This document shows positions 3,115 through 34,592 of a DNA stretch of 64,000 bases, one piece after another. The position numbers and the translations under genes are program-made. The stretch spans positions 38,037 to 102,036 of the IMG/VR virus record IMGVR_UViG_3300021387_000308, one strand, 5' to 3'. The notes beneath the pieces are model-generated. The model saw nothing but the letters and a program-made list of their open reading frames with translations, was not told the origin of the DNA and searched no databases. Source of the DNA: a virus. Taxonomy: Duplodnaviria; Heunggongvirae; Uroviricota; Caudoviricetes. Position 1 is the stretch's first letter. Each line of letters begins with the position of its first letter.

Positions 3115-3618
3115 ATGAAGAAGGAATTATTTTTAATTGAAGCGATCAATATTACAAGTTTTTATGAAAATATGCCAGAGGAAAAGAAGAACGCTCTTCC
3201 ACTTAAAGTGTATTATGGACTTAAAAAGGTTGTGAGTAAACTTCAGCCTGATGTGCGTCAGTTTGAAGAGGTTCGTGATGAAGAGGTAAAAAAGATCCGC
3301 GACATCTACTTCTCTGAAGAAAAGAGCGAAGAAACTGCTATTCCAAAAACTGATGAAAATGGCGAACCTGTACTGGATGAAAATGGAAATCAGTTAACAG
3401 ATACTGGTCGCAAGGTTAAAGATGAATATGTAGACGAATACAAAATTGCAATGGATACGCTGAATGAAAAACTTCAGGAAATCGCAATGGAAAAGAATAC
3501 TTACGAATATAACTGGGTGGATATTGGAGAAATGGTTGAGAATCTTCCAGATGATACACCACTCACAAGAGGAGACATTGATATATTAGATGCAATATTC
3601 GATGAAACTGCTAACTGA
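3115..3618 (+). CDS. hypothetical acidic protein (167 aa), no in-frame TAG
   Basis: Track ORF. RBS aaaaggag 8 nt upstream of ATG. TGA stop followed by a terminator hairpin. Confidence 0.6.
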   Translation: MKKELFLIEAINITSFYENMPEEKKNALPLKVYYGLKKVVSKLQPDVRQFEEVRDEEVKKIRDIYFSEEKSEETAIPKTDENGEPVLDENGNQLTDTGRKVKDEYVDEYKIAMDTLNEKLQEIAMEKNTYEYNWVDIGEMVENLPDDTPLTRGDIDILDAIFDETAN

Positions 3619-3648
3619 GACTGATTAACTTCAGTCTCTTTCTTTTAT
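3617..3648 (+). terminator. rho-independent terminator (GAGACTGA-ttaact-TCAGTCTC then tttcttttat)
   Basis: 8-bp perfect stem at 3617-3624 / 3631-3638 followed by a T-rich tract. Confidence 0.55.
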
Positions 3649-3665
3649 GAGAAAGGATAAAACGA

Positions 3666-6600
3666 ATGGATATTAATGTTAACTTATCTCATCAAACAAT
3701 GAGGGTTGCAACAGATCTAAAGAAGTTAGTCGCTGGCTCATAGAAATTCATCCGTTTCGTTTTTAAACTACCGAGTGAATGGGATGATTTTGATGTTATA
3801 ACAGTTTAGTTTATATAGAATGGTTTGGCAAAATATGATTAGCTTGATGAAAACCATGCTGTATATCTCCCATCAGATCTTGAGCCTGGAGATTTTCTAT
3901 TGTTAATTTACGGCTCAAAAAATAACGGAGAAATTCGAGGGACTGTAAATGCATTACAACTCACTCTTACTCCTGATCAATATATTCCTAGTGCTACTGA
4001 AGTATCTCTTACCGAGAATATGTATGATCAGCTAATAAAAATGGTTACAACCATTGGAAGTGAGCCTGTTACAAGTAGTGATATACGTGGATGGGTTTAT
4101 GATGATTCGGTTGCTATTCTTAGGCAATTTCTCGACAATGGAGATTTAACTGGTTTAACTATTCCAGATAAAACAATTGAAAAACATCATCTCAACGATG
4201 AACTTCAAGCATCCATAGACCGAGCAGATTCTGCACTTCAATATATCCCGGATGGATCAGTAACAAGGTCAAAGGTTGATTCAGAAATTGAAGGACTTTT
4301 TAATACTCTTGAAAACCTCGAAATGACTATCCCAGAAGGTTCTATTGATAAAAGTAAAGTGAATTCTGATTTTGCTGCTACTTTAGATAGGGCAGATTCT
4401 GCCATGCAACCATCTGTCTATGATGTTAATAATCGTGCAACAGATATTTTTAATTATGCTGATAGTAAAGTAGAACCAGTTCAGGCTTTAGCATCAAGTA
4501 TGAGACAGGAAATGTCTAGTGCTTACACTGTTGATGAAACATCTTATGATAGTCTTGGTGCTGCTATTAATGGTGCGCTCACTCAGGCAAGAACTTATGC
4601 TAAATCATATACGGATGTAACTCTTGGTAATTATGTTCCATATAGTGTAGCTATTACTGCTACTCTTCCACCGATTAATCTTGGGCAAGATAGGACTTTC
4701 TATCTCGTACCAAAAGCTTCTGGTAATGGATATGATAAATGGTGGGTTGTTGAAAATCTCGACCATACTAAAGTGTGGGATAATTGGGGCGGTTCTTCTA
4801 CATTAATTGTCACTGAGTTGCCACAGGAAGGTGATGTTGATGTAGATTATATTTTAGCCCAAAATGGAGATTATAAATATTATAAATATATTGATAATGA
4901 ATGGAAAATGATTGCCGGGACTAATAATGTATTTTTAGGTATTGAAGGGCAACATTTTATTATTGGAATTGGTGAGCCTGATAATGATTTGATTACTCAT
5001 GATAATTATGCTGCCACTTTAGGATATATAGATATATCTTCGGAGAACTTGAATTGCTATTTTGCAAATGTAGTTTCTTATGAACCTGATTTTGAATATG
5101 AATGGGATGAACCACATGAATTAGTTGAATTCCCATCCGTTGATAAAGATTATTATGTTTTAGATAATAATATGAATTATGTCCATTTAAAATATAATGG
5201 AGGTCAATTTAATATTGTAGGTTCTTGTACATTTGTAGTAAACAAATTACCGACTGTTGGAATTAGCAATGTAGATTATTTATTATTTAAAGACGGAGAA
5301 TATCAGTATTATAAATATATTAATGATAGTTGGAAAATGATTTCTGGCGGGAGTGCAGATGTAATAGTAAATGAACATTCGATTGATTATTATACTCTTC
5401 CACCATTTACTGATCAAGATTTATCAAAATATATTAATAAGTATTATTTAGATGTAAGTAATTTAAAACTTTATACTGTTGTTCAAAGTAATGATGAATA
5501 TCAATGGCAAGAAACTGTTCTTGTTAGTAACCCAAGTGATAGCAAGGATTATTATATACAATTTGGGAATAATAATCTTCTTCATTTTAGATTTGTTGAT
5601 AATGTATTTATACCTGTTGGTTTTACTCAAACTGAAATTGATTCGATTATTAATCCGCTCAATACTAGGATAAATACATTAACAAATAGAATAGATGGAT
5701 ATGATACTTAGATTACTCAAAATCAAAGCAATATAGCTTCTTTAAATAATACAGTTTCATCTCTTCAGCAAGCTGTTAGTGAGATTGATACAGAGGGTTA
5801 TGAATATTTTGCAGACTATGGGACATATGAAGTTGCTGGGCAAGAAACAGATAATGTTTATAGGCTTCGTAAAGTAAAAGGCAGCGAAGAAGAAGTTGTA
5901 AGTTAGTTTGTGATTCAAGGCGGCGGAGGTGGACAGCAAACTTCTACTAACCTTGTTGTTGAAAGAATTACCTAGTCACCATTAATTGTAACTCCAAATG
6001 ATAATGTGATTCTTGAATTTAGGTATTCTTCTGTAACTAATGATAATCAAAAGGAAGAAATTGATGGTAACTATACATTAAAACTTGGCAATACTGTTAT
6101 TGCAAGTGGTGAATGTATTCAAGGAATAAATTCAATCGATGTAACATCATATTGTACTATAGGTACACAAAGGTTTAGTTTAAATGTTGTTGACCTTGGT
6201 GGTAGTAGTGCCGTTAGAACATTTACTGTGTAGAAGGTAGATGTTCGTATTGAATCTGAATACAATGATAGATATTATAATGAGATTGGGAAATCAGCCC
6301 AATTTACATATACTCCATATGGTGCAATAAATAAGACTATTCATTTTAGTTTGAATGGTGAAGAAGAGACTATTACTACTGCTGCTTCTGGTATATTGCA
6401 ATCATATGCTATTCCAGCCCAGCCACACGGTTCATATTTACTTGATGTATGGGTTACTGCGACTGTTAATGGAACTGATATTGAAACAAATCATATTTAT
6501 AAAGATATAATGTGGTATGATCCAAATATGGATGGACAAGGTAATTATAAATCTCCTGTTATCGGATGTAATTATAGATATGACCATCGTGGAGCGGTAA

Positions 6601-9600
6601 GCGTAAGACAATACGATACTCTTCCAATTGTTTATAATGTTTATGACCCAACAACGAATTATCCAATTGTGCGAAGATATATTGATAATGTACTTGTTGG
6701 TACAGATACCATGGAAACAACTCAGAATACATGGAACTTCAAATCTGACATTGTTGGTGAACATAATCTACGAATTGAATGTAGAGATACCGTTGTTATA
6801 ATTGTTGTAAATGTTACAGAACTTGGTATTGATGTTTCTCCAATTACTGGTGGTCTAGAACTTGATTTCAATCCTGTTGGTATCACTAATAGTTCAGAAA
6901 ATAGAATTTGGTCGAATGATAATTATCATATGACAGTTTCCCAGAATTTTGACTGGGCAAACGGTGGATATAAAACAGATGAAAATGGTAATTCTTATTT
7001 CTTAATAAAAGCTGGAACTACTGCGTCATTTGATTATACTATGTTCTCTGGAGGAGTTGATAATAATCCATCAAGAACTGGTTCTGAAATGAAAATTATA
7101 TTTATGACGGAAAATGTTCAAGATGCTGATGCTGTTTGGTTTAGTAATGTTGAAACAAGAAGCTAGACAGTCGATGAAACAACTGTTACTGTAAATATGG
7201 GTATTCAAATGTCTGCTCATAATGGATGGTTAAAAACAAATAAGGCTAGTGATGTTGATGTATCTGATGGAAGTTCTGATACTGTTGCTGCTACGAATAC
7301 GTATTTGTATATGCCATACAGTGAAGAAGATATTATTGAAATGGATATCAATATAGACACGATTGATCTTGAAAATGAAACTTCTACCGCTTTTGTAATG
7401 TCATATGAAGATGGTGTTCCGTCAAAAGCATATGTATATGATAGAAGTGATAGATTTTATCAGTATGACCCTCAGCCAATCACGATTGGTTCTACTTACT
7501 GTGATGTAAGAATTTATAGATTAAAAATCTATTCTACTTCTTTAACATCAGAGGGTATTATGAGAAACTTTATTGCTGATTCTATGGATTCTACTACTAT
7601 GCTTGCTAGATATGATAGAAACAGTATTTATTATAATCAAGAAACTGGGGAATACTCTCCATATAATACAAATGGTATTTTGAGTCCTGAAAGATTAGCT
7701 CCAATAGTTCCTAATGTAAAGATATTGATGTTGGAAACTGATCATTTTACTACCAGCAAAAAGACATTTGTTAAATCCAATTTAAGATGTATTCATGCTC
7801 CAGGCGGCGATGTTTATCCTGGCGATGAATATTATGATAACTGGTATTTTGAAAATGGATGGCATTCTGGTCAAGGTACTACATCTGACAACTATGGTAA
7901 CTCTGGTAGAAACGTTGACTTTTTGTTTAACTGTGATGGTGTCCATAAACCAAGTGATAAGATAAAAGATCCAGAACCAGATTATATTTCAAAAGTTACT
8001 CTTGGTTATAATACTGAAAATGCATACACTGAAACGGTTACGGACTGGAAGGGTGATTCTGGTAAAATTAGTCTTACAAGGACTTCGATACCAAATAATT
8101 TCTTTAATTTAAAAGTTAATATAGCTTCTAGTGAAAATGCAAACAATGCATTGATGCAAAAGAGGTATACGGATTTCTTACCTTATATTTCTCCAGCAAA
8201 ACGAAGAGATCCTAGGATAAAAAATGATATGGAATTTGTTCCAGCAATTTTATTTATTAAAGAAACAAATCCTGATCTTAGTACTCATAATGAATTCCAA
8301 GATAATGAATGGCATTTCTATGCCCTTGGTAATCTTGGAGATTCTAAGAAAACTGACTATACACGTTCATATGACCCAGAAGATATGAATGAATTTACTA
8401 TAGAAATATCTGATAATACTAAAAATAATGCAACATTCCAAACTGGTGTTTATCAGAAACAAGATGGCTCTTATGGATATGAAACATTCCATCTGATTAA
8501 AACACTTGATAAAGAGGGAGAACTTGTTGTTACTCCAGTATCTGAAGTTTCTATATCTGAGCATATATCTCCTGTTCCTTATGACCAAATTGATGCACTT
8601 TTGTTCTAGCAAGGTACTATTCATGTTATTAATGAAACTGGATTAGCAGAGCATGATGGTGATGAATATGGATATTTAAACATGAGAATCTGGTGTCTTT
8701 ATAATGAGGGATTTGATGGAGATCACTCCTTCGAACCTAGATATGCTTGTTGTGGTGATTATAGAGATGGTAAATTAGTAAATGATTATTCTGGATATGG
8801 TAAATAGCAGGTAAAAACGAATGAAAAGGTTTGGAGAGCATTCTACAAGTGGGTTATCACTTCTACTAATGAATAGTTTGTACAAGAACTTGATCAGTGG
8901 TGCGTAAGAAGTGCTGTAGAATTTTTCTATGCATTCACTTTATATTATACCATGATGGATAATAGAGCAAAGAATACTTTCTGGCATTTTGCAAAGACTG
9001 GTGTTTATAGAGAAGTATCCAGACCTGTTGAAGAATTACTCCATATTTATTGTGAATTAGTAGATGAAGAATATGTTCCAACTGAAGACACTTCAATTGA
9101 TCCAGAAAAAACATATTATACATAGTATGCATTTGATTTATGGTGCTATGATACTGATACTGGTCTTGGAATTAATAATAATGGTGAACTTATTTTCCCA
9201 TATGGTAAAGAAGATACTGATTATAATATTGATGGTGATCCATCTTCTGGTTGGGTATTTAACGGAGCTACTTCTGTATTCTGGTGCAGATTGAGAGATT
9301 TATTATCAAATGAAATAACAGAGACATTTAACAGTGTTTCAGCGGAGTGTTTTAATGCTACTAATCTGATAAATCAATTTGATAAATTCCAAGGATGCTA
9401 TCCAGAAGAAATATGGAGACTTGATGTAGAAAGAAAATATGTAAGGACATATACTGGAAAATCTGTTGATAATTCTATTCCTAAACATGATACTCAGTAT
9501 CTTAGAGATATGATGCAAGGTAGAAAGAAATATCAGAGAAGACAATGGGTTAGAGATTAGGAAATGTATTTTGGAACAAAATATCTTATGAATACTGTTG

Positions 9601-12353
9601 TTGGTGACAATAACCGTATTACATTTAGGTGTTATGACCCAGGTAATGATGTTGTTGTTCCTAAGAATTATTCTCTTAGTATTACACCATTCCAAGATAT
9701 GTATGTATCTGCGATGTTTGGTAATGGTGATCAACGACAAGTTAGGGCAAAAGCTGGAGAAACAGTTGTTCTGAATTTCAGTGTTAGTACAACTACTGAT
9801 ACTTAGGTAACTATTTATGGTGCTAATAGAATTGCGGCACTTAATGATTTATCCGCATGTTATATTGCTGCAAATAACTTCTCAATGGCTACAAAGCTGA
9901 GAAAACTTGTTCTTGGTAATACTACTCCCGGATATTCAAATTCAAGGTTAACTTCTTTAACTCTTGGTTCAAATAAATTGTTAGAAGAACTTGATTTGAG
10001 AAATTGTAATAACTTAACTGGTACGCTTAATTTGGCAGATTGTAGTAATCTTCTTAAATTGTACGCAGATGGTACTAGGATTAGTAGTGTTACTTTTGCC
10101 ACTAATGGTAAAGTATAGATTGCTCATCTTCCACCAACATTAAACACATTGGTAATGAGGAATCTTAATGACCTCCAAGATTTTTAGTGCTCAATGGATT
10201 ATCTTGAATAGTTAACTTTACAAGGAGGCACATTAAATAGTTATGAAGTTATTTCTGATGTAATTGATACTCTTAGTGTAGTATATTTATATGATTTAGA
10301 TTGGACGGTACCGAATTCTGATATTCTTAATCAATTATTAAATCTTGAATATTCTACATTGACTGGTAAAGTATATATTAATGGTGCTACAAGACTTAAG
10401 GAACTTGAAAGATACAATGCAAAATGGGCTGATCTTACTGTCACGTATAATCCTAACTATCTTGTAGAACAATATGCAGTTACTTATGTTAATGATGATG
10501 GTACTACTCTTGGAGTATATTATGTAGACCGTGGTGCCGTCCCGCCAAATCCAGTCGAAGATGGTACAATGGAAACTCCGACAAAAGCAAGTGATGCTCA
10601 ATATACTTACACATTTAGTGGTTGGGATGATATTGAATCTGTAGTACTTGCACCAAGAACTATTAAAGCACAATATTCAGAAACAATTAGAACATATACT
10701 GTAACTTGGTATTCTCGTGAAGGTGTTCCAATTCGTAGCACATAGGCTGAATATGGTTCTGAAGTAGTATACGATGGTAATATTCCAACTCGTACTGATG
10801 AAGAAGCTGCATATTGGTATAATATATTTACTGGATGGGACAAATCTACTGGATATATTACTGGTGATACTGATGTCTATGCTATTTGGGATAGAAAAGT
10901 ATTACCTGTTACTAATAATAACACATTGTTGACGAAAGACCTTAATGATATGAGTCCCGCAGAAATCTATGCTCTTGGTAATGCTTAGGCTATTGATTTG
11001 TCAAATATTACAAATCTGGAAGTGAAAGATTATAAAGATATTGTGGTTGGTAATGATTTTAATTTTAATAATGTAGAATCTGAAGTTCTTCTTGAGAATC
11101 GTTGGTTTGATGGTAAAACACATGTTGATACAAACATTAAATTGTTTAGTGAAGATTCGGAAGATTTTACTCTTGCTATTGATTTTGAATTTTATCAGCC
11201 GACATCAAATGCTACTCTCGTATCTTGCTTCGAAGAAGATGGTTCAGAAGGTTTCAGATTAAGATATAATCAAGGTTCTTCTATTCAGTGGGGTGATAAG
11301 AGTGTAACTGCTGGGCCAGACAGACAACGTAGTATTTGTGTAATCCGACACTTAAAAGGTTCTGATAAATTATATACTTATGTCTATAATACTAACAGTT
11401 ATCAATATGATGATGCTGTAATTAGAACAGAATTAACTAGGACAAGATCTACTACTACTGATTCGGTACTTAGTTTTGGTGCTATCAAATTCCCAGATGG
11501 TGGTTATGATTTCTACGCAAAAGGCTGGATTCACTGGTGTAAGATTTGGTATGCAGATTTAGGTAATGCCAATGCTTTGGAACTTGCACAATGGCCTCAT
11601 GAAACGTGGAGAGCAGAATACACTGGTTTGCAGAATTATAGATTGCCAGGTACTAGTAGATATGCTAGATTATCATTCTCATTAAATAACCTTCTTCTTA
11701 ATGAAATGGTTATGGCATATAGTAGTTCAAATGCTGGTGGTTGGCCCGCTAGTAAGATGAGAGTATGGGAGAATGATAGAATTTATAAAGCATTGCCAGT
11801 ATCTTATAGGGCAATTCTTAAACAAGTAAGAGTATGTTCTAGTGCTGGTAGTATGTCATCCGAAATAGTATATTCTGATGATTATATTTATGCTCCATCA
11901 TTAATAGAAGTTAGTGGCAATTCTTAGATTCCTTATGGAGATGAAATTCAGTCTAGTGGAAGTAACAAGATGATTCCTTGGTATACTAGTGATATTTCTA
12001 GGATTAAGTTCCTTGGTCAATTTGCACCAAGTAATCCAAATACTTTCTATAGTACTGAAGACCCGACAATTAATGATTCTAATAATGTTACTGCTGGAGA
12101 TATTTGGTATAGAAATTCATATGGTACTTACTATATGTTCATACCAAAATCCGAATATGATCGTCATGAGTATAAAGGTGATAATATTGTAGCTTCTAAT
12201 GGTGGCTTATGGTATCAGAGTGCTTATTGGTTTACTAGAACACCAGATGTATCATATAATGAATACTTTAGAGGTGTTGGTAACAGCGGTAATACCTATA
12301 CAATGCTTTGGCCTAATTCTGCTTATGGTGTCAATATTAATTTCTCAGTATAA
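3666..12353 (+). CDS. giant virion fibre/adhesin-like structural protein, 2895 codons, about 21 TAG(Gln) codons
   Basis: ATG 3666 with RBS gaaagga. Frame 3 contains no TAA/TGA from 3666 to TAA 12351-12353 (codon walk checked across the gaps). Track ORFs 3900..5711, 6006..6233, 6351..7166, 7197..8609, 9291..9560, 9564..9806, 9885..10118, 10359..10745, 10998..11927, 11970..12353 are all frame 3 and each ends at TAG. Internal duplicated motif [18 protein letters not shown] / [18 protein letters not shown]. Confidence 0.65.
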
Positions 12354-16535: not shown

Positions 16536-19500
16536 ATGGCCGATATTTCGGTAATAAAGCTCCCAAATGGGTCTTCTTATAATCTTAAAGATTCTTAGGC
16601 GATTGCTTCTGCCACGTTTTCAGGACACGAATTAACATTAGTAAAGCGAGGTAGTGGAACTCAAGTAGTTGATTTGGGAGACTTTGACACTATAAATGTT
16701 ACTGATGCGAATATCGGTAACTTGGTTGTAACTGGATCTGCTAGATTTACCAATGGTATATTTGGAGATCTTATTGGTAATGCATAGACAGCCACAACAG
16801 CTTCAAGAGTTTCTGGTGTTGCTGGATCTACTAATGCTGCACGACATGTGTGGTTTTCGGATAGCGGAACCGAAACTGCTAGAAATTATGATGATGATTT
16901 TAAATACAATCCATCCACTAACACATTAACTGTTGCGAATGTTAGTGGTAATGCAACATCTGCAACAACAGCAACCACATGTACTGGAAACGCTGCCACA
17001 TCAACCAAAGCAAACATAACAACAACTGCAAATGCAGTAGCAATATACACAGATACTGCTGGAACATTCGGAACAAAAGCTACGGCAAATGGTGCAGCTT
17101 ATGCAACATCAACGAACGGCGCTTTAACATTTGGTACTCTTCCAGTTGCCCAAGGTGGTACTGGAAAAACAAGTGGAAAAGATGCCGCTAATTATTTTAT
17201 GAATTCACTCGATACTGGAAGTTCAACTCCAGTAGATGCCGACTATTATATTTCTCAATATGTTAGCGGTGGAACAACAACTACAACATATCATCGTAGA
17301 CCAATGTCGGCACTTTGGTCATATGTATCTGGTAAACTTTCACATAAAATTGACGGTGTTACATTTAATGGTACAGCTGACATTATACATTATGGAACAT
17401 GTTCAACTGCGGCTGGTACTGCTGAAAAGGCAGTTACTTGTGCAAGTTGGAATCTCGTAACTGGTGCGACAATTTGGGTTAAGTTCACAGTAACAAATAC
17501 TGCTGCTGTTGCAAACCTTAAACTTAATGTCAGCAGTACTGGAGCAAAAGCAATTAAATATCGTGGCGGGAATCTTCCAATGGTCGCAACTCTTACAGCA
17601 AATAGAATATATGGATTTGTTTACGATGGAACGAATTTCGAATTACTTGGCGATCTTGATACAGACTCTAACAGTGATACTTGGAGAGCAATTTAGGTAA
17701 ATGGTACTTAGATTATTGCATCTAATTCAAATACTGCATTAAATCTTAAAGCAGGAACAAATGTTAGTTTATCCAACAGTTCTGGGACTGTAACAATAGC
17801 GGCTACTGATACTACATATTCCGCTGGAGTTGGTCTTACTCTCTCATCTACTACGTTTAAAGCAAAATTAAAATCTGAAACTAATTCTACTCAAGAATCT
17901 GCAACCGTTGGTACAACGGCTAATCGACAATATGCAGTTCATCCAGATAAATCTGGTTATCTTTCTGTAAATGTTCCGTGGACTGATACTACTAAAGCTA
18001 CTGCCTTTAACAGTGTTAGAGAAATTAAACTAACTGGTGATGTTACTGGTTCTGCAAGTGCTGACGGTTCTAGTGGATGGAGTATTGCAACTACAGTAGC
18101 AGATTATTCTCATAATCATTATCCTAATAATTTAATACTTGGTAATAGTGCTACTACTAGTAGTTTAGATCCATTAACTAGTGCATTTATAGGAAGTGCA
18201 GCATCAAACAAAACATTTGGATTACCAGCAAATGCAATTGTTATAGAATATAGTACAGATGGTGGTTCTACATGGACTGATTATGGTGCTACTGATGCGC
18301 AAAAGAGAGATTTATTTGCAGAAACTAGAGGAACTAATTTTGTTCTTGGTAAGTCAACATCTGCTTCTACAAATAGCACTAATAATAGATTACGTGTAAC
18401 TATTGAGCCAACAGATAGATATGTTGCTGTACATGGCATTTATGTTTGGTTTAATACACAAGGAAGCACTGCATATATGGATCTTGAAAGGTCAACTATT
18501 GGAGCGAAAGATACATTTACAACAGTATTTACTGGATAGCAAATAGCTGGTTGGTCTGGTAATAATATAAGATATTTTAGTGCTAGTTCGTTTGGAGGTG
18601 GTTCTAGTCAAACATCAAATCATTATAAATATAGAATCACATTTTACCAAACAGCAATTAATTCAAATTATTCTGGAGCGATTGTTAATGATATTAGGTT
18701 CTTGGGATTAAGTGTTCATTCTTCTCCAAACAACATGGTTGCCAAAAACCACCTATATACATGGAATTCTAGTTTAGACGCAACATTCCCAGCACAACTT
18801 ACTGCAACCAAATTTATTGGTAATGTAACTGGTAATGTGAGTGGAACTTCTTCTGGCGTTTTAGACGCTGGTAATAATAGTTCAACAACCACATTCGCAT
18901 ATTCAAAATCTGGGCTGAATGCAAATTGGACTACAACGCCCTGGTTTGCGGCATGGAATGGTTACGAATTAAGAGCAATTAATTCTGTTAATATGAAGAC
19001 TACTCTTGGTTTAAATAATGTTGATAATACTGCTGATGCTAATAAATCGGTTGCTTCTGCTGCAAAATTTACTTCTGCTTAGTCAGTAACTCTCACTGGA
19101 GACACTACTGGTACTGCAAGTTCATAGGCTGGATGGAGTATAGCAACAACTACGAAATTATTTACTGGAACACTTGAGAGCGCTACTGCTCTTACTACTA
19201 GTCCAACTGCTGGTAAAATTCGTTATAGTTATAATGTTAACAATGGTACAGCTGGATTATTTAATCACTCAAGTAATGCGAACTCAATTATTACATTAAA
19301 TAGACATAATGGCAATTATGATTCACAAATTGGATTTTCATCTGATGGGAATATCTATTATAGATCTTTTAATGGAAGTGCGTTGAATAATACTACAGCA
19401 TGGAAGACTATGTTAGATTCTGGGAATTACACTTCCTATACAGTAACCAAAACTGGTTCAGGAGCTAGTGGGACTTGGGGAATAAGTATTACTGGTAATG

Positions 19501-20396
19501 CAGCGACGGCAACCACGGCTTCTTCGGCTAGTGCGCTAACTGGTCTTACCGCAAATCGTTTTGTGATAGGTAATGGTTCGTCTGCTGCGTATGCGTCTAG
19601 TAGCATGGGGTATTTCAATAATGTTGATGTGACCGTTGCATCTACTACCGTTAAACGGAACGGATTATATATCACTGGCGCTGGATATGGTAACACCGCT
19701 TCGTAGCTAGTATCATAGACATCGGGTGTTCTCAGTTGGGGAGACGGTGGCCCTCAAATTATATTCAGCACTGGCGATTATTCTAACAGTTCTAGCCAAT
19801 CTGGTGCTTTAATATTTACTGATCATGATTCTGCTGGTACTGGTACAAGCTTCCACTTCGTTGGTAACCAAAGCGATTGGAGTGTGAATTCAAAACGTTT
19901 TGTGGCGAAAACGAGCGTGTCTGTCGGAGTGAATGTTCCCAACACGAGTTATAACTTATATGTTGCGGGTACAGCGAATATTACAGGGGTGACTACTGGG
20001 GCAAGTTTCATATCTTCGTCTAAGATGACAATATCCAGTGGAACAATGACGGAAATTGCTACCAACCAACGAGGAGGCTTGTTTGCTGACGGTGTGGCAT
20101 TTTCAAATCCTGCGACTAGAAATGATCAAGGTTGGATACGTTGTCTCGGAACTAGTGAATCAGATACTGTACTTGAGATTGCAACTGGCGATGACAGCGG
20201 TTCAGGAGAACAAATCAAAGCTAGACAGTACAATACATCTAGCGCAGTTGTTCATGAAATGACATTGTTGGATACGTCTGGACATACTGCGGTTCCAGGA
20301 AATCTGACAATCGGGTCAGGCACTACTGGTGCGAGTGGCACTGTTAAGCTTGTTATGAACACAAGCACTAATTCATTAGATTTCGTTTTCTATTGA
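16536..20396 (+). CDS. giant fibre protein (1286 codons), N-terminus MADISVIKLPNGSSYNLKDS(Q)A; compositionally distinct GC-richer C-terminal module
   Basis: RBS aaggaggtg then ATG 16536. Frame 3 is continuous through track ORFs 16848..17696, 18702..19082, 19383..19706, 19884..20396 to TGA (gaps 16536-16848 and 17696-18702 walked codon by codon). Confidence 0.7.
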
Positions 20397-20574: not shown

Positions 20575-20688
20575 ATGAATATGTCTTATATTGTTTATAT
20601 AGATACAAAGCAAGCAACACACACACAGTTTTTTAAAATATTTTATGATATTCCATCTGATTTTAGCAAGAAAGTAGGTGAGATGTAA
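20575..20688 (+). CDS. small upstream ORF (37 aa) with strong RBS aggagg; its stop overlaps the next start (TAATG)
   Basis: ATG 20575, TAA 20686-20688, next gene ATG 20688. Confidence 0.3.
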   Translation: MNMSYIVYIDTKQATHTQFFKIFYDIPSDFSKKVGEM

Positions 20689-22382
20689 TGGCACTACAAA
20701 TTTGGATGCCATTAAATGGTGATGCTCATAATCAAGGGCTTACAGAGATATCTACGGTTGGCTCACCCGCATTTGTTAATGGTGGAATTCTTGGTTACGC
20801 ATTCGGCAACAACTCTCTTGCAATCCCGAATTTTTCCGCAATCTCGTGTTTGAGCGATGGGCATAGTTTCACGTTTTGTTTTTGGATAAAGCCAACAACA
20901 GCAAGTCAAACAGTGACATTTTTTGATTGTGGAAATTCGACTGGAACGGGAACGAGATTACACTTTGCTATGAATAGCAATAAGTTTCGATTTGGTTTTC
21001 GAGCCGATGATTTAGATGGACCAACGTTAACAACCTCCTGGAGTCATATTGCATGTGTGTATGACGGTAGCAAGAAGTACATTTATTACAATGGGGTTCT
21101 GAATACAAGTGCTACGAGTGGGTAGTTGAAAATTCCAGCTACAAATATGTCAGGCAACTTTTATGGCTCAACGGTATATATGAATGATTTCCGCCTCTAT
21201 GACACTGCTCTCTCTCCTCGTGAAATTAAAGAGATATCTAAGGGAAAGATTTTGCATTATACACTTAACAGAGGTGGATTTGGACAAGATAATTATTTTA
21301 ATTGTCCAGATTTTATAAGAGGTACATCTAGTACGGCAAATTTGAGAGAGTATAACAATGGTTTATTTACATTAACAGCTAATATGAATAATGCGTTTAG
21401 CCAATTGGTTCCTGCATTAAATGAATATACTTCTGTAAAAATTCCTGCTGGAACGTATGTTTTTTCAATTCAAAATTGGGTATCAGATGTTAGTATACAC
21501 GATGTAACTGGTCTTGCATTGAAAGTTAAAAATTCTAGCGGTTCTACATTTTTACTTCCAAATAATACACCAACAACACTTGCTGATGAATGTTCTTTTG
21601 TCGAAATTGTTGGGAATAAAACAATCTCAAAAGGATCAACTATATCATGTCGTTTTATGCTTGAAAAAGGATCTGTTGTGACTCCGTGGACTCCGCATTC
21701 TTCTGATACATTATATTCTAAAATGGGGTTAGATGATAATATTGAGTATGATGTGAGTGGGTATGGACATAATGGAACTGCAAGTGGTACTACCTATTCT
21801 TCTGATACGCCGAGATATAATATAAGTACAAAATTCGATGCTAACACAAATACTGTGACTCTAATGCCATGTTTTTCAAATGGTCAAACTGTAGATGAAA
21901 TGTCTGTTGGTATTTGGCTTAAAACAAATACCTTAAATAGTACTGCCCCAAATTTTTTCTCGTTAGGAGAAAATATATTTGTTCGTGCAAGAATTACGAC
22001 TAGAACATCAATTTAGACATTTTCAAAAATTGGTACTGGTAATTTAACTGGGGTCAGTTTTAATTGTAAAAATATACTAGATAATGAATGGCATCATTTT
22101 GTATACGTTTTTAACAAAGGCATTATTACGTGCTACATTGATGGCGAAATGCTTAGTTCAGAAGATAAATCCTCTATTGCTAATTATCTTTATTGTGGTT
22201 CTTAGAGTTGGCATCTTGCTGGATATACTGCAAACGGTGAAAATTTTATAGGTTCTTTAAGTGATTTCCGCATCTACGCTACTGCTCTCTCCGCCTCAGA
22301 TGTACTCACCCTCTACAATACCCCAATAAATTTAAGCAGTAACGGAACTCTCCTTACTCAAGGCGAATACGTGGAGGTGTGA
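20688..22382 (+). CDS. tail fibre protein with two LamG/concanavalin-like jellyroll domains (564 aa); 3 TAG(Gln)
   Basis: Track ORFs 20688..21125 and 21126..22016 are both frame 3. Walk 22014-22382 checked, TGA at 22380. Motifs FRLYDTALSPREIKEIS and FRIYATALSASDVLTLYN are typical of LamG-type fibre domains. Confidence 0.65.
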
Positions 22383-22384
22383 TT

Positions 22385-24103
22385 ATGGCATTAAAATATT
22401 GGTTACCTATGACGGACGGAACATTACATAATTAGGGAGTAAGCAATATAACATTAACAAATAATAATGTTACATCCAATAGTAATGGGAAATTAGGAAA
22501 ATGTGTATATTTTAATGGATCTGCCGCAGCATATGCAGATGGTATTACAGTTGGGAATAATCTAACCGTATGTTTTTGGGCAAAAGCAAATACGGTTCAT
22601 AGTGGTTATATATTTTAGCTAGGAAATGCTGCAACTGCTAATTAGGTATAGGTTGCTCTTAGGACAGAAGCGAGTAATTAGTAGTATATAGCATTTATTG
22701 GCAATACATCATTTACTAGCGGATATAATATTGGTTGTAATACAACTGATTGGAATCATTATTGTATGGTAATAGAAGAAACTACATTACGTATTTATAT
22801 TAATGGAACATATAAGTCTTCCCATACTATTTCATCATATTATTCTGGACATAGATTGTCGCTGGGATAGTATTATTCAGGAACTAATTTTAATGGTTAT
22901 ATTAATGATTTTAGATTATATGACAATGTTTTATCACCAAGTGATATTAAAAGAATTTCGCAAGGATTAGTGCTTCATTATTCATTATCTAATAGAGGAT
23001 TTGGCAATGAAAATTTACTTACTCGTTATGTTACTCCTGGGCAAGCAAGTCCTACGTCAACTGCGACTGCTGGTAGAACAAAATATTATGGTGATTATGG
23101 AATTATTATACCAGCACAAGAATCAGCTGACACTTATTTTAGATTATTTTTGAAAGAAAAACTTACTTTAAATGAAGTGTATACTATTAGTTGTCAAGCA
23201 TCTGGATTATTAAATGGGTCATATATTAGATTTCCTCTTTTTGCATAGGGTAATACATCTATGGGTATATTAAATATTGATCATAATGGATTATGTAGTT
23301 TAACCTTTACAATGACTTATACTAATCAAACTGCTGCTACTGCTGGAAGTGAAACTGTTTATATATGTTTTTTAGACGATTCTGGAAGAAATTATGTATC
23401 TGGATAGGGAACAATTACATTAACAAATTTTAAAATAGAAAAAGGTAATAAAGTTACTCCATTTATCCCACATTCTTCCGATCCACTATATTCAAAACTC
23501 GAATTGGATAATAACATTGAATATGATTTATCTGGATATCAATATAATGGAACAAGAAGTGGTGTTACTCCATCAAGTGATGCGCCGCGAAATTTTGGTG
23601 CAACATATTTCGATGGTATTGATGATATGATTCTTATTAATGATTTGTATGGAATATCAAGTATATTAAATGATTGTGCTACTATATCGTTTTGGATAAA
23701 ACCGCAAGATGAAAATGGCGCACGGTCAATATATTTTTCAGCATATTCAAATACGTCATGGTCAATTGAAAAAAGTACTGCAAATACTATTAGAAGTTGG
23801 TGGAACGGTAGCCCAGATTTAAATTGCTCAAATGCTGTTATTACCGATGGTGTATGGTAGCATGTATGTATTGTTAAAAATGGTTCTTCTAATTTAAAAG
23901 TATATATAAATGGGGAATTAAAATATACCCAAGGAGGATATACATTTGAAAATAAAACATTTAGTACGACATGGAGAATTGGAAGAGATACAAGATCAAA
24001 TGATGGTACACCATATCATGGATTAATGACCGATTTTAGACTGTATTCTACTGCTTTATCAGCTGAGGATGTTTCTGAATTATATGGGGGTGGTGTTGCA
24101 TGA
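22385..24103 (+). CDS. paralogous LamG-domain tail fibre protein (572 aa); about 9 TAG(Gln)
   Basis: ATG 22385. Frame 2 runs through track ORFs 22970..23248 and 23504..23860 to TGA 24101-24103. N-terminus MALKYWLPMTDGTLHNQG matches MALQIWMPLNGDAHNQG of the upstream gene. Motifs FRLYDNVLSPSDIKRIS and FRLYSTALSAEDVSELYG. Confidence 0.6.
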
Positions 24104-24736: not shown

Positions 24737-26677
24737 ATGATTGCAAAAAATCTTTTAGTAAATGGCAGTTCTAGATTTTTAGGAGATATGTACGGGAATT
24801 TAGTTGGTACAATAAATAGCCATACTGTTGCTAAAGATGTACCATCTGATGCCAAATTTACGGATACAACTTACTCTGTTGTGTCAGCTGGAACGTCCAC
24901 AACTGCTGGTGGATTAATGAGTTAGTCAGATAAAACCAAACTAAATGGTATTGCTACTGGAGCGGAAGTTAATTAGAATGCTTTCTCGAATATATATATT
25001 GATGCTGGCAATGCAACATTACTTCCAGCGGGATCAAAAACAGATACATTTAGATTAAAGACTGGTGGTAATATTGCTTTTGAAGTTAATACTAGCCAAA
25101 ATCAAGTAACAATTTCTGCTGTTGATACTATTCCAAGTGCCTATTGCAATACTGCTAGTGGAACTGCCGCAAAGGTTGCAAGTTGTACTGGATATGTACT
25201 TAGACAGCATAATTATATTCAAGTTATAATGGTTAACGCAAATTCATATAATGGTGCTATTACATTAAATATTAATGGTACTGGAGCAAAAACTATTAGG
25301 ATTAATGGTTCTGATTCTTCATCATCAAATAAAACATTACCAGCTGGGTCTTATATGGTTTATTATAACGGTACATAGTATTGTTTTAATACGTCACTTA
25401 GTATGCCTGGATATATAGATTATGCAAAATATATTAACATGACATCTACTACAAATAAGATGTTTATTGGCGGTACGACAAGTAGTTCAAATAGTTATAA
25501 ATCATTGTATTTTAATCCTAATGTACATATAGAAAATTATACATTAAGTATAAATGATAATGTTATATTAGATGGGGATACTTGTGATATATAGCTTATA
25601 TCAAATAGTCTAAGTAATACATATTCAAATTTAAGCCCAAATCACTTTTATATTAATACTCAATCATATAGTGCAAATTATGCTGATACTGACATACTTA
25701 TGAATGAAATACTTAATTCTGTAGAAGTTAATCGTGTTAATATCAGTAGTATGACTGCTAGTATTTATCTTAATTATACTAGCCCTAAAATTGAGTTAAA
25801 TGCTACTGATAATCCAAGCATTACTTTAGAAGTACGTAATACTGGTGTTCATGGATTATACTCATCTGGTTATAATAATGGTAGTTCATTTGTATCAGAT
25901 CCTCGTTGGCTGATTCAAAGAACTGCTGGTTATGATAATAATTTAATAGAGGGCAATACTTATATAACAGGTAATTTAACAACACAAACTTCTACTGCTA
26001 GTATAGCAAATTATATGCGAATTTCACATAATGGATTTGGCGGAACAAGTATAGATATGGAAGTTTCAGCAAGTGGCATACCTGGAATTTATTCAGCTAG
26101 ATATTGGAATGGTAGTTCCGTAGTATACAACAGTGGTATTTGGATGATTTATCGTGATACTGATGGGTTGGTTAGAACTAGAAGTTGTTCTGGTACTAAC
26201 TCAACACCGCTTGTAAATACTTCTACAACAGATGGGAAAATGCTATCTGGATGTCATTGTAATACTTCTACTCAATTAGCATTATATGGTCAATGGGGAA
26301 CTACTGGAACAACGTATGCATATAGATATGTTACGGTAACCACATCTGATCCACGACTTAAAGAAAACATTGAACCGACTAAATTTAATGCTCTTGAATT
26401 GATTAATAAAATTAATCTTTACTCATTTGACTGGAAAAATGATGATACCCCGCATTATGATGTTGGTTATATAGCTACAGAATTATATGAATTGGATCAT
26501 AATCTTGCCATCAAACCAGAAGATGAATCCGAAGGTTATTGGGGAGTTAATGATTATTACATGTCTGGTGTTCAAACAAAAGCAATCCAAGAATTGTCAG
26601 CAGAAAATAATGAACTCAGAAACAAGATCACATCACTTGAAGCTAGGATAGCGTCATTAGAAGCGCTTATAAAATAA
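24737..26677 (+). CDS. tail fibre protein (646 aa) with C-terminal S74-type intramolecular chaperone domain (...TTSDPRLKENIEPTKFNALELINKINLYSFDWK...); 4 TAG(Gln)
   Basis: ATG 24737. Frame 2 continuous through track ORFs 25403..25594 and 25700..26677 (both gaps walked). TAA then a terminator. Confidence 0.7.
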
Positions 26678-31701: not shown

Positions 31702-32418
31702 ATGAGTTATGTGAAAAATGTTTGGAGTGATGGAGATGTTATCACTGCAAATAAGATGAACAATATTGAAAATGGTATAGCTACGTTGCAAACCGACATG
31801 GGTAATATAACTGCTGAACCTATGATATCTATTACATGGGCAGAACTTAAGGCTAAACGTGATGACGGAAACCTTACGCCAGGTATGCAGTATCGCATTA
31901 CCGACTATGTTTGCACTACAACGCAGGAAGAAACTAGAGCAGTTAGTCATCCTTACGACATTATCGTAACAGCTGATAGTGCTAATACGCTTAACGAAAG
32001 CGCTATGGCTTGCTTGCATGATGGCGATGACTATTACACCGCCGAAGATCATTCCGCTAATCTTAAGGCTTGGGAACTTAAGTACTGTCTGGATAATGAT
32101 ACGACTAGATTTGCCTGGGCAGATGAGACAAACGGTAAGGGCGTTGTCTACTATCTTAAGGATGAGAAAGGTAACGAATGCCCTTACGATTTCAAACAGA
32201 TCCAGTTTAAGAGATACCTTATTACAGAATGCGAGAAAGTTCCTAGCTTGGTTAGCACCGCTGCTACGGCACTAATAGATTCTGCTATCATCACCGGGAT
32301 AGATGAAGATAACCCGGCTTGGTGCTATACGTTTACTAAATTTACAGGACCTGGCACAGTAGAAGATGCAACAGTATTAGGGTCACAGCATGAAGATAGC
32401 GACGGAGGTGGATATTAA
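31702..32418 (+). CDS. fibre module X (238 aa), no TAG; its core recurs fused inside the next gene
   Basis: RBS aaaaggagg then ATG 31702 (the track's 31681 start is an upstream TTG). TAA overlaps the next ATG (TAATGA). Confidence 0.6.
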   Translation: MSYVKNVWSDGDVITANKMNNIENGIATLQTDMGNITAEPMISITWAELKAKRDDGNLTPGMQYRITDYVCTTTQEETRAVSHPYDIIVTADSANTLNESAMACLHDGDDYYTAEDHSANLKAWELKYCLDNDTTRFAWADETNGKGVVYYLKDEKGNECPYDFKQIQFKRYLITECEKVPSLVSTAATALIDSAIITGIDEDNPAWCYTFTKFTGPGTVEDATVLGSQHEDSDGGGY

Positions 32419-34592
32419 TGAATGTACTTGGAAATAAAATAGCATATGCATCCTATCAAGATCAACAGATTCTTAATAATATAGTTTTTTTGGTAGTAAA
32501 CATTGGATGCTCTAATAACACCTTTGGTAATAACTGCTCTAAAAACACCTTTGGCGATGGCTGCTCTGAAAACACCTTTGGAAATGACTGCCGGAACAAC
32601 AACTTTGGCGATAACTGCAAGAACAACACCTTTGGTAATAGCTGCTACGACAACGTCTTTGACATCAACTGCTCTGAAAACACCTTTGGCAATGACTGCT
32701 ACAGCAACGCCTTTGTCAATAGCTGCTCTAAAAACACTTTTGACGATAATTGCACCGGCAACGCATTTGGCCGTGCATGCCTTGGCAACACCTTTGACAA
32801 TAGCTGCCAGGACAACACCTTTGGCGATAACTGCAAGAACAACACCTTTGGTAATAGCTGCGAAAATAACACCTTTGGCATTAGCTGCCAGAGCAATGCA
32901 TTTGGCGATAATTGCACCGGCAACGCATTTGGCGATAACTGCCAGAACAACACCTTTGGCAATGATTGCGCCGACAACACCTTTGGCGATAACTGCCAGA
33001 ACAACACCTTTGGCAATAGCTGTTATAGCAATACCTTTGATCATTGCTACGCTAATGTCTTAGAATTCAATTGCGGTTATCTTAAAGGCATGTATGACGA
33101 AACCGAAGGCACAACGGCACATTCATATCATGTGCTGCAATCAACTCATGGTACATCTGTTGAAGAATTATATGAACTCCCGACTAAGCCAGATACAGTT
33201 CTATCAGTCACTTACGTTGGAATGGACAGTAGCGGAAATATTACAACGTGGATCCTTGCCGAAGTTAACAATGGTGGTAGCGGTGGATCAGCTACACCAA
33301 TGGAATCCATTACATGGTCTGAACTTAAAGTAAAACGTGATGGTGGAACTCTTACACCTGGCATGTAGTATCGAATCACAGACTATGTCTGTACCACTAC
33401 GTAGGCAGAGTCTAGAGCTGTCAGCCATCCTTATGATATTATTGTGACAGCTGATAAAGTTAATGTGCTCAACGAAAATGCTAGGGCTTGTCTTCACGAT
33501 GGTGATGACTATTACACTGCTGAGGGACATTCTGCTAATTTAGCTGTTTGGGAGCTTAAGTACTGCCTGGATAACGACGAAACTAGGTTTGGATGGGCAG
33601 ACACCGAAAACGGTAAGGGCGTTGTTTACTATCTTAAGGATGAACATAATAACGAGTGTCCTTACGATTTTAAGCAGATTCAGTTTAAACGGTATAGGAT
33701 TACTGAATGCGAGAAAGTTCCTAGCATTGTTGGAGCCTATACGGCACCAATAGAATCTACTGTTATCACCGGAATAGATGAAAATAACCCAGTTTGGGGC
33801 TACACATTTTGTTATTATGGAAATAATCTAGACGATGCAACGGTATTAGATGCACAGCATTATTTAGATGACTGCGGAGTATTTGGAAATAAAATAGCGC
33901 CGGCGTACAATGGCGATCTAATGGTTCTTAATAATATAGTTTTTATAACTATCACCGACGGCTGCTACGGTAACACCTTTGACGAAGGGTGCGGTTACAA
34001 TACCTTTAGCATTACATGTTGTAACAACGCATTTGGCTATAACTGTCATAGCAACATCTTTAATGCTGGTTGCACCAGAAACGCATTCAACAATTCTTGT
34101 GTCGGGAATATTTTTAGTACTAGGTTCAAAGAAAATACTTTTGGCAATGAATGCCATGATAACATCTTTGGCAATGAATGCCATGATAACATCTTTGGTA
34201 ATGACTGCCATGATAACATCTTTGGTAATGACTGCTCTAACAACATATTCGGTAATAACAGTTATAGTAACACATTTAGTAATAACTGCTATAATAACAC
34301 CTTGGGCAATTCCTGCCCGTTCAATTCCTTTGGTAGCAATTGCCATAATAATATTTTAGAAAACACATGCGGTTATCTTAAAGGTACATATGATGAAACC
34401 AACGGCACATCAACACATTCGTGTCATGCATTAGCCGGAACTAGAGGACTGCCTGATCGATTATATGAGCTTCCGACTAACCTAGATTCAAATAAATCAG
34501 TCACTTACGTTGGGATGAAAAGCAACGGAAATATTATAACGTGGGTGCCGGCCGATGTTCATGATGATCCAGATGAGGGTGGGCTACGGTGA
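32418..34592 (+). CDS. beta-helix-type fibre protein (724 aa): 9-residue repeat array - tail - copy of module X - second repeat array - tail; 2 TAG(Gln)
   Basis: Track ORFs 32418..33368 and 33444..34592 are both frame 3 and joined through TAG 33366 and TAG 33402. Both TAGs align to CAG codons (31888, 31924) in the upstream paralog. Confidence 0.7.
32508..33057 (+). repeat. about 20 tandem 27-nt coding repeats (peptide C-x-x-N-T-F-G-x-x)
   Basis: Periodic NTFGDNC / NTFGNSC units in the translated ORF. The same units on the antisense strand create spurious ORFs. Confidence 0.7.
33963..34371 (+). repeat. second array of about 15 27-nt coding repeats (C-H-D-N-I-F-G-N-E type)
   Basis: Same 9-residue periodicity in the second half of the gene. 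Confidence 0.65.

Follow-up and report, generated by a model that had tools for sequence, protein, structure and literature searches.

A giant late gene with in-frame TAG codons read as glutamine probably encodes a distal-tail host-recognition protein in a temperate gut phage

A 2,895-codon open reading frame interrupted only by TAG is, in our view, probably a late gene of a Clostridia-infecting temperate gut phage in which TAG stands for glutamine and whose product is a distal-tail host-recognition protein. The window analyzed here, a 64,000-nucleotide stretch of the IMG/VR virus record IMGVR_UViG_3300021387_000308, would derive from a temperate, siphovirus-like gut phage of ~118 kb that probably infects a Clostridia bacterium. 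The late genes of this phage use TAG as a Gln codon, the giant frame being one of them, and its full translation would occur only upon efficient decoding of TAG as Gln, presumably by a suppressor tRNA. The 328-kDa product would then serve host recognition at the distal tail: an N-terminal attachment region and stalk would bear a string of binding modules (Ig/LamG-like, LRR-like, Flg_new-like, a LamG/CBM40-like lectin, and a DUF6273-type head), with a CotH-kinase-like domain and its invariant Asp/Lys/Asn...Asp-x-Asp motif in mid-protein. The features of the locus and their coordinates are collected in Table 1.

Table 1. Features of the giant gene and its surroundings (window positions; amino acids numbered along the giant protein unless stated otherwise)
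Feature	Amino acids	Position	Strand	Basis or remark
Upstream 1,421-aa tail protein	its C-terminal 958 aa	1..2964	+	ends in S74-type domain; 11 TAG in window; synteny partner of giant gene
Terminator-like hairpin (putative)		3617..3646	+	8-bp stem, 6-nt loop, TTTCTTTT tail; between 167-aa gene and giant gene
Shine-Dalgarno-like AGAAAGGA		3650..3657	+	8 nt 5' of ATG at 3666; read directly from sequence
Giant gene	1-2895	3666..12353	+	2,895 codons plus TAA stop; 21 in-frame TAG read as Gln; full-length homologues
N-terminal domain	1-160	3666..4145	+	matches phrog_19695 (function unknown)
Short fibre-type repeats	160-330	4143..4655	+	form IP-D/E-x-S/T-I...RADSA-L/M-Q
Duplicated ~125-aa module	356-480 and 494-614	4731..5507	+	local alignment score 147 versus 36 +/- 7 shuffled
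Coiled-coil-like segment	655-720	5628..5825	+	weak matches to Baculo_PEP_C, tail needle phrog_1219, and trimeric adhesin and sigma-1 coiled coils
Conserved core	726-1411	5841..7898	+	phrog_14959 match, E 1e-63
CotH-kinase-like fold (predicted)	~1349-1979	7710..9602	+	medium-confidence model and one intermediate sequence
Small beta-sandwich	1984-2060	9615..9845	+	after CotH-like fold; resembles carbohydrate-binding module
Leucine-rich-repeat-like region	~2075-2250	9888..10415	+	sequence inspection; aligns to P0091; no Pfam match in giant protein
Two Flg_new/InlB-B-repeat-like units	~2265-2410	10458..10895	+	sequence inspection; motifs YTFSGWD, NIFTGWD; not significant in giant protein
LamG/concanavalin-like lectin domain	~2456-2654	11031..11627	+	closest to sialic-acid-binding CBM40 modules of gut Firmicutes
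C-terminal alpha/beta domain	~2670-2895	11673..12350	+	homologous to DUF6273 region of family members

The frame runs from ATG to TAA on the plus strand and contains exactly 21 TAG codons, no TGA, and no internal TAA, as an earlier note made from the letters alone had described for these 8.7 kb; the other two frames hold 112 and 401 TAA plus TGA codons over the same interval. Given the base composition, the probability of zero TAA/TGA across 2,895 codons is ~1e-76, and the longest TAA/TGA-free run in 200 shuffles was 175 codons. The length of the frame is far beyond chance. Its product has a computed mass of 328.5 kDa, against the ~320 kDa foreseen by that note, and a pI of 4.5. A frame fusion arising from sequencing error, also raised there, is excluded because the window is identical to the 118,309-bp ENA contig ERZ28612940 scaffold_261 (100% identity across 13,618 nt), assemblies of other samples (L139, L140) share the same frame, and a public database protein (P0001; 2,895 aa, called full length under code 15) is 99% identical to the giant protein. 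Table 11 splits the region, leaving a longest TAG-free piece of 622 aa, so the gene is indeed invisible to standard-code annotation, as had been claimed, but public code-15 gene calls do hold the full-length protein. The search that yielded the terminator-like hairpin upstream of the gene returned 2 sites, versus 0.2 expected in shuffles.

Comparison with homologous sequences indicates that the giant locus is one gene. Homologues of the protein numbered 96 in the database and were encoded at 53 genome loci, including those of cultured Ruminococcus and Clostridium isolates, and at >517 IMG/VR loci. Among the cultured isolates with a standard-code prophage homologue are Ruminococcus sp. AM36-2AA, Ruminococcus sp. 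YE282, and Clostridium sp. chh4-2. Nearly all are single uninterrupted standard-code ORFs of 2,000 to 3,000 aa from gut phages and Clostridia prophages, with collinear homology across 80 to 100% of the length at 30 to 79% identity (the phrog_14959/PF19789 family); ~7 of the 80 IMG/VR relatives inspected were amber-recoded. The possibility that homologues would reveal several independent genes here thus met with the opposite outcome, single collinear ORFs that mostly follow the standard code and lack in-frame TAG. The giant protein shares this collinearity with the ~2,000- to 2,900-aa DUF6273-ending tail proteins (PF19789; phrog_14959), which include the "CotH + Laminin_G_3" DGR targets (Wu et al. 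2018, PMC5758913), and likewise follows an S74 tail protein gene and has an Ig/LamG/CotH-like core; it differs in lying at the upper size limit of that family, in its extra duplicated N-terminal module, and in being amber-recoded. Its description in the earlier note as far larger than usual tail fibres is fair as to bulk, but within its own family, whose members span 2,300 to 2,900 aa, the size is typical. Among GenBank phages, megablast with the giant gene returned no match and tblastn only distant partial ones (the best covering 50% of the query at 27% identity), leaving the protein with no close relative in those records. Pfam and NCBIfam gave nothing significant for the giant protein itself, and queries of Pfam, NCBIfam, and PDB sequences, whether by the protein or by profiles of its family, gave nothing, or weak coiled-coil/PKD-like matches.

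The alignment with homologues runs uninterrupted through every TAG of the giant gene and supports reading that codon as glutamine, in keeping with its earlier designation as a sense codon. In 24 standard-code homologues, Gln made up 23% of the residues at TAG columns, a 7.6-fold enrichment, compared with 28% at ordinary Gln positions, and it was the sole residue strongly enriched there. By BLOSUM fit, Q was the best residue at TAG positions (15.9) and E the second (8.9). Opposite the giant-gene TAGs, recoded relatives 72 to 80% identical had CAA 18 times, CAG 11 times, and TAG 9 times out of a total of 54 (70%). Some columns were exceptions, among them 2441, mainly Gly, and 2182, mainly Thr/Ser. 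Across the late genes, TAG was found 26 times in the first 60 codons, versus 15.6 expected (p 0.005). Since each of the 21 TAGs must be passed, full-length yield equals the 21st power of the read-through efficiency at a single codon. Leaky suppression would thus leave hardly any product, and the gene would need efficient reassignment.

Other accounts of the TAG codons fare poorly against these comparisons. What looks like one frame could be a coincidence, some 22 short standard-code ORFs or pseudogene remains lined up in the same frame, with TAG as a true stop, and both the table-11 fragments of at most 622 aa and the failure to find a suppressor tRNA in 85 kb would be in line with this. Such an arrangement is vanishingly improbable, given the near-zero likelihood of lacking TAA/TGA over this length, the end-to-end collinearity with single standard-code ORFs of 2,300 to 2,900 aa, the unbroken alignment with Gln opposite the TAGs, and the same TAG pattern throughout nearly all of the window's late genes; the homologue and codon comparisons effectively refute it. 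It is also very unlikely that TAG is decoded as some other amino acid (Glu, Lys, Tyr, Trp, or pyrrolysine), or only partially, with nested truncated products as the main output. Glu does rank second in the BLOSUM fit, non-Gln residues dominate the exceptional columns, and the early excess of TAG in late genes would fit a translational gate, yet strong enrichment is seen for Gln alone, exchanges between TAG and CAA/CAG prevail among close relatives, 21 successive read-throughs need near-complete decoding, and metaproteomics has confirmed TAG as Gln in other gut phages (PMC9523058).

The distribution of TAG beyond the giant gene follows the life-cycle-split recoding of Borges et al. On the plus strand, the late genes of the window contain 117 TAG in 12,893 codons, equivalent to 29% of Gln codons; TAG interrupts almost every one of them, late/structural ORFs are intact with TAG as sense, and coding coverage of the window rises from 69% to 88% once it is so read. 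The integrase and the early genes on the minus strand are compatible with the standard code, TAG in minus-strand genes lying mostly near C-terminal ends, and the integrase ORF stops at TAG. Code-15 late-gene recoding in gut phages (Borges et al., bioRxiv 10.1101/2021.08.26.457843; Peters et al., PMC9523058; phAss-1, PMC10607447) is alike in that in-frame TAG is concentrated in structural/lysis genes, that the integrase and early genes can be read in the standard code, with a TAG ending the integrase ORF, that Gln aligns with TAG, and that a gut metagenome is the source and a standard-code Firmicute the likely host. In contrast to phAss-1, which has three suppressor tRNAs (PMC10607447), none was found in 85 of the 118 kb of the window phage. 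ARAGORN found neither a suppressor tRNA nor any other tRNA in the window and its flanks (the window, L138, and L143, together record 7367-87211), which make up 84.8 kb of the 118.3-kb contig. No tRNA was found by Rfam in the window, and no suppressor tRNA by ARAGORN in the recoded relatives; nor was a release-factor or GlnRS gene noticed.

The N-terminal domain, presumed to be the tail-attachment end, carries 4 of the 21 TAGs (codons 26, 48, 51, and 59). The internal duplication that the earlier note had spotted was missed by BLAST self-comparison and detected by local alignment with a shuffle control. Farther along, the conserved core looks, on inspection of its sequence, like a set of Ig-like and LamG-like beta domains; CotH and Laminin_G_3 motifs have been described in related ~2,000-aa phage proteins (PMC5758913).

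Folds were established for two segments of the protein, and a structure model of medium confidence places a CotH fold in its middle. Together with one intermediate sequence, this model suggests a link to the Bacillus CotH atypical protein kinase (PDB 5JD9/5JDA; PF08757). The PF08757 HMM had no match above threshold in the giant protein, and a distant relative, P0091, alone passed it (25.9 bits versus a cut-off of 23.8). A phmmer search of PDB with P0091 returned LRR proteins only, and hhalign of the family profile against a true CotH sequence was not significant with either a 15-sequence or a 215-sequence (all loci) profile. Two motifs are conserved without exception in 40 homologues: D1765-x3-K-N1770 (nt 8958-8975) and Y-D1829-x-D1831 (nt 9147-9158). 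When matched by eye, D1765-x4-N1770 and D1829-x-D1831 are collinear with NFDGFVHN...WDYD of CotH, and they would be candidate equivalents of its catalytic D228 and metal-binding D251. Unlike Bacillus CotH, a 360-aa spore-coat enzyme, the CotH-like domain has large insertions and sits within a 2,895-aa virion-type protein, and the two share 11% identity with no Pfam or significant profile match.

The protein could accordingly be viewed as tail associated but chiefly enzymatic, the CotH-like domain being an active kinase-type transferase on a host envelope or phage substrate to which the lectin-like modules target it. We regard this as unlikely: catalytic equivalence with CotH would have to be accepted without significant hhalign support and with pLDDT below 50 in both loops that carry the motifs (residues 474-480 and 540-556 of the model), an ATP supply outside the cell is doubtful, and a C terminus with lectin and DUF6273 heads is characteristic of receptor-binding proteins. 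That the domain is a catalytically active kinase-type transferase carried on a virion host-recognition protein is doubtful as well. An enzymatic reading is compatible with receptor binding as the best explanation. We know of no such transferase activity in phage receptor-binding proteins.

The distal domains of the giant protein are predicted to have lectin-type folds of a binding-competent class. Its lectin domain shares 11 to 18% identity with the CBM40/LamG modules of gut Firmicute sialidases and of the Thomasclavelia ramosa IgA peptidase (PDB 6er4, 4c1w, 2vw0, 9qa6), a similarity that implies no sugar specificity. For the repeat-like units before it, Pfam Flg_new matches the family member P0091. 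The C-terminal domain would be of DUF6273 type by homology: PF19789 had no match at E <= 0.1 in the giant protein itself, a segment of P0009 homologous to its C terminus (aa 2453-2540 of P0009) matched at 1.4e-8, precomputed PF19789 assignments occur in most homologues, and BFVD fold matches include DUF6273 proteins. This domain is presumed to be the receptor-binding head. In target proteins of Faecalibacterium prophages, DUF6273 carries DGR variable regions (PMC11792537). For the giant protein as a DGR target, a search of the window for a template repeat found nothing, the final 953 nt of the gene occurring there only once; no RT was noticed among the scanned ORFs of the window.

Gene order places the giant gene in the tail module, after genes for the tape measure, a DUF6558 protein, the S74 protein, and a 167-aa product. 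The tape measure has a provisional call of 7,650 aa. In a standard-code prophage with P0009, the structural genes end with the giant homologue, ahead of holin and amidase. One flank protein had no relatives in IMG/VR, and the tape-measure fragment had no match in the protein database. A crAss-like phage was rejected as the source on the basis of the integrase, the siphovirus-type tail module (tape measure to S74 protein), and the Clostridia prophage homologues. From synteny and lectin-type folds, which would put it in the virion and in contact with a receptor, the giant protein is most likely a tail-tip receptor-binding protein. The same evidence upholds the tail/adhesin character proposed in the earlier note, which had not foreseen a CotH-kinase-like domain.

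Nothing here alters current concepts: how the recoding works, the logic of its regulation, and the existence of the protein family can all be found in publications or databases. The locus offers a clean, well-controlled example of amber-to-Gln recoding, in this case by a large temperate phage infecting gut Firmicutes. Standard-code homologues in their hundreds allow the reassignment to be calibrated one codon at a time, and the locus illustrates how much of a tail module is lost under table-11 annotation. The giant-protein family is abundant in gut phages and prophages (>500 IMG/VR loci) yet entirely uncharacterised, and its conserved CotH-like core, flagged as unstudied (PMC8008677, PMC5758913), is the one feature that may hide new biology. 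Were that domain active, adsorption or assembly would be the stage at which the phage chemically alters a substrate, either on the host surface or of phage origin.

The open frame at window positions 3666 to 12353 was confirmed as a single one, as claimed in an earlier note made from the sequence: it contains exactly 21 in-frame TAG codons, no TGA, and no internal TAA, and the two other frames over the same interval contain 112 and 401 TAA and TGA codons. From base composition, such a stop-free run has a probability of ~1e-76; the longest run among 200 shuffles was 175 codons. A ribosome-binding site (AGAAAGGA) lies 8 nt 5' of the ATG, and the downstream gene begins 18 nt past the TAA with a ribosome-binding site of its own. 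The predicted product is acidic (pI 4.5) with a mass of 328.5 kDa; read with table 11, its longest fragment would be 622 aa. The internal duplicated motifs described earlier were real: a ~125-aa module is present twice (aa 356 to 480 and 494 to 614; local score of 147 versus 36 +/- 7 for shuffles), with shorter fibre-type repeats N-terminal to it.

An assembly artefact as the source of this frame was ruled out by an identical ENA contig (ERZ28612940 scaffold_261; 118,309 bp), which showed 0 mismatches to the window over 13,618 nt and also includes a gene from the window's far end, by the presence of the same frame in assemblies of other samples (L139 and L140), and by a near-identical protein (P0001; 2,895 aa, 99% identical) already present in a public collection, where the TAG positions appear as Q. 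The other reading, that the locus represents several independent genes, was answered in favor of one gene because the homologues are themselves single long ORFs. A protein search yielded 96 homologues; most were 2,300 to 2,900 aa long and collinear across 80 to 100% of the query. One member (P0009; 2,664 aa, 58% identical) is encoded without in-frame TAG in a prophage adjoining host clpP, ftsK, FTHFS, and mur genes. At 53 loci in species-representative genomes, which include the cultured Ruminococcus sp. AM36-2AA, Ruminococcus sp. YE282, and Clostridium sp. chh4-2, as well as Wujia chipingensis and Tyzzerella MAGs, nearly all homologues were single standard-code ORFs of 2,000 to 3,000 aa. Of more than 517 relatives in IMG/VR, 80 were fetched: ~70 were standard-code ORFs on contigs of 95 to 205 kb, and 7 were amber-recoded with 11 to 31 TAGs each, the closest relatives among those fetched (76 to 79% identity) belonging to these seven. 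No close relative was present in GenBank phage records (best match, 27% identity over half of the length); in the same records, the match to Bacillus phage G gp353 was confined to the CotH-like part. The giant protein belongs to a large unnamed family.

TAG in the giant gene is predicted to be decoded as glutamine. At 19 informative TAG columns compared with 24 standard-code homologues, Gln accounted for 23% of residues (7.6-fold enriched; all other residues, <=1.6-fold), versus 28% at ordinary CAA/CAG Gln positions of the giant protein, and summed BLOSUM62 scores placed Q first (15.9) and E second (8.9). Opposite giant-gene TAGs, the three closest recoded relatives had CAA (18/54), CAG (11/54), and TAG (9/54); reciprocally, giant-gene codons facing the relatives' TAGs were CAA (17/42), TAG (9/42), and CAG (3/42). 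This matching of TAG and Gln codons between recoded relatives is the maximum permitted by their overall identity. A full-length product requires read-through at 21 codons, so that its yield scales as the efficiency per codon to the 21st power, and decoding would need to be nearly complete.

Coding coverage of the window rose from 69% to 88% when TAG was treated as sense, which also yielded a tightly packed (+) block from 1 to 38.3 kb, with in-frame TAGs in almost every gene (117 TAGs in 12,893 codons, or 29% of all Gln codons). In the (-) block, TAGs fell almost only at C-terminal ends, such as codon 437 of the integrase ORF, where they probably act as real stops. The genetic code is split in the window by strand and life-cycle module, the same pattern, down to the integrase detail, as the life-cycle-split recoding reported by Borges et al. 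(bioRxiv 10.1101/2021.08.26.457843). Such recoding has been confirmed by proteomics in other gut phages (Peters et al., PMC9523058), and the recoding seen here is a classic instance of code 15 among such phages. Within late genes, TAG was modestly enriched over the first 60 codons (26 observed versus 15.6 expected; p 0.005), with four in the giant gene at codons 26, 48, 51, and 59; this early enrichment is consistent with a translational gate. ARAGORN identified no tRNA of any kind across the window and two ENA flank pieces of the same contig, L138 and L143 (record positions 7367 to 87211; 85 kb), unlike described recoded phages such as phAss-1, which have several suppressor tRNAs (PMC10607447). 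An Rfam scan of the window identified no RNA family.

Gene order on the contig places the giant gene in the tail module, 3' of genes for, in this order, a tape measure (PF10145), a DUF6558 protein, a 1,421-aa protein that ends in an S74 domain (the window begins inside its gene), and a 167-aa protein. In the standard-code prophage encoding P0009, the S74 protein is preceded by the tape measure and a small protein and followed by the giant protein, the holin, and the amidase, in that order. Siphoviruses that infect Gram-positive bacteria have their distal tail or receptor-binding protein in this slot, after the tape measure and S74 protein and before the holin. The earlier interpretation of a giant fibre or adhesin of ~320 kDa is supported.

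The surroundings of the gene have further features (see the table). The terminator-like hairpin sits inside what otherwise resembles one late operon, and the 167-aa gene 5' of it is TAG-free. About a dozen more fibre-like genes follow the giant gene (12371 to 34592, + strand), whereas in the prophage the homologue leads straight to holin/lysin. The larger gene of the adjacent pair encodes 724 aa with Cys-rich 'NTFGNxC' repeats and no family match; the GC content of the pair (42% versus 34% for the window) suggests recent acquisition. The aminotransferase gene, directly 3' of the endolysin, closes the late block and is unusual cargo for such a position. The recorded product of the tape-measure gene (ENA ERZ28612940 scaffold_261) has 7,650 residues and a PhageMin_Tail domain, and the gene's 1,544 readable codons 5' of window position 1 (L138, 1 to 4634) are open, with 26 TAGs and no TAA or TGA. 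If true, a tape measure of this size would far exceed the giant ORF and point to a tail of exceptional length.

Features of the window (window positions)
Feature	Position	Strand	Remarks
Terminator-like hairpin	3617-3646	+	8-bp stem + TTTCTTTT; between 167-aa gene and giant gene
Giant gene	3666-12353	+	ATG start, TAA end; 2,895 sense codons
1,286-aa protein	16536-20396	+	No family match
Tandem paralogue pair	20688-22382, 22385-24103	+	Both match phrog_14220
Second S74-type fibre	24737-26677	+	
Adjacent gene pair	31702-34592	+	Near-identical ~190-aa block common to both
Endolysin	35260-36933	+	
Class-V aminotransferase	36951-38102	+	Cysteine-desulfurase-like, Pfam E 6e-84; one in-frame TAG
Early/lysogeny block	38.5-64 kb	-	Tyrosine integrase, Band_7 protein, ribonucleotide reductase with LAGLIDADG intein, many small genes
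Ribonucleotide reductase large subunit	42650-45898	-	Interrupted by intein with LAGLIDADG homing-endonuclease domain; C-terminal TSCPD domain

Pfam and NCBIfam gave no match for the giant protein; phrog_19695 matched aa 7 to 158, and phrog_14959, of unknown function, matched aa 726 to 1411 (1e-63). By inspection and from family members only, aa ~2075 to 2250 would be LRR-like and aa ~2265 to 2410 Flg_new-like. A distant member (P0091) exceeded the Pfam CotH threshold exactly where it aligned to aa ~1736 to 1850, and D1765, K1769, N1770, Y1828, D1829, and D1831 were invariant in 40 homologues, with an order and spacing that, matched by eye, equal those of CotH NFD(228)GFVHN...WD(251)YD, in which D228 and D251 are published inactivating positions. 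Profile comparisons of the giant family with CotH were not significant, and in one of two segments modelled with family alignments as input, both motif loops had low pLDDT. An unlikely further reading is that this invariant motif reflects enzymatic activity in the recognition protein of the virion.

The modelled C-terminal segment comprises a LamG/CBM40-like lectin followed by an alpha/beta domain that corresponds to DUF6273 in homologues; its BFVD matches were phage 'tail-collar fibre', ConA-like, 'CotH kinase protein', 'internalin-like', and DUF6273 proteins. In Faecalibacterium prophages, the variable region of DGR target proteins lies in DUF6273 (PMC11792537), which supports the alpha/beta domain as a putative receptor-binding head. 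A template repeat for the giant C-terminus was absent from the window. Wu et al. (PMC5758913) recorded long 'CotH + Laminin_G_3' members of the family among the targets of phage DGRs, and Benler et al. described the family's CotH-type domain as 'currently unstudied'. The giant gene falls into two known categories, late genes with amber recoding and giant tail proteins of the DUF6273 family.
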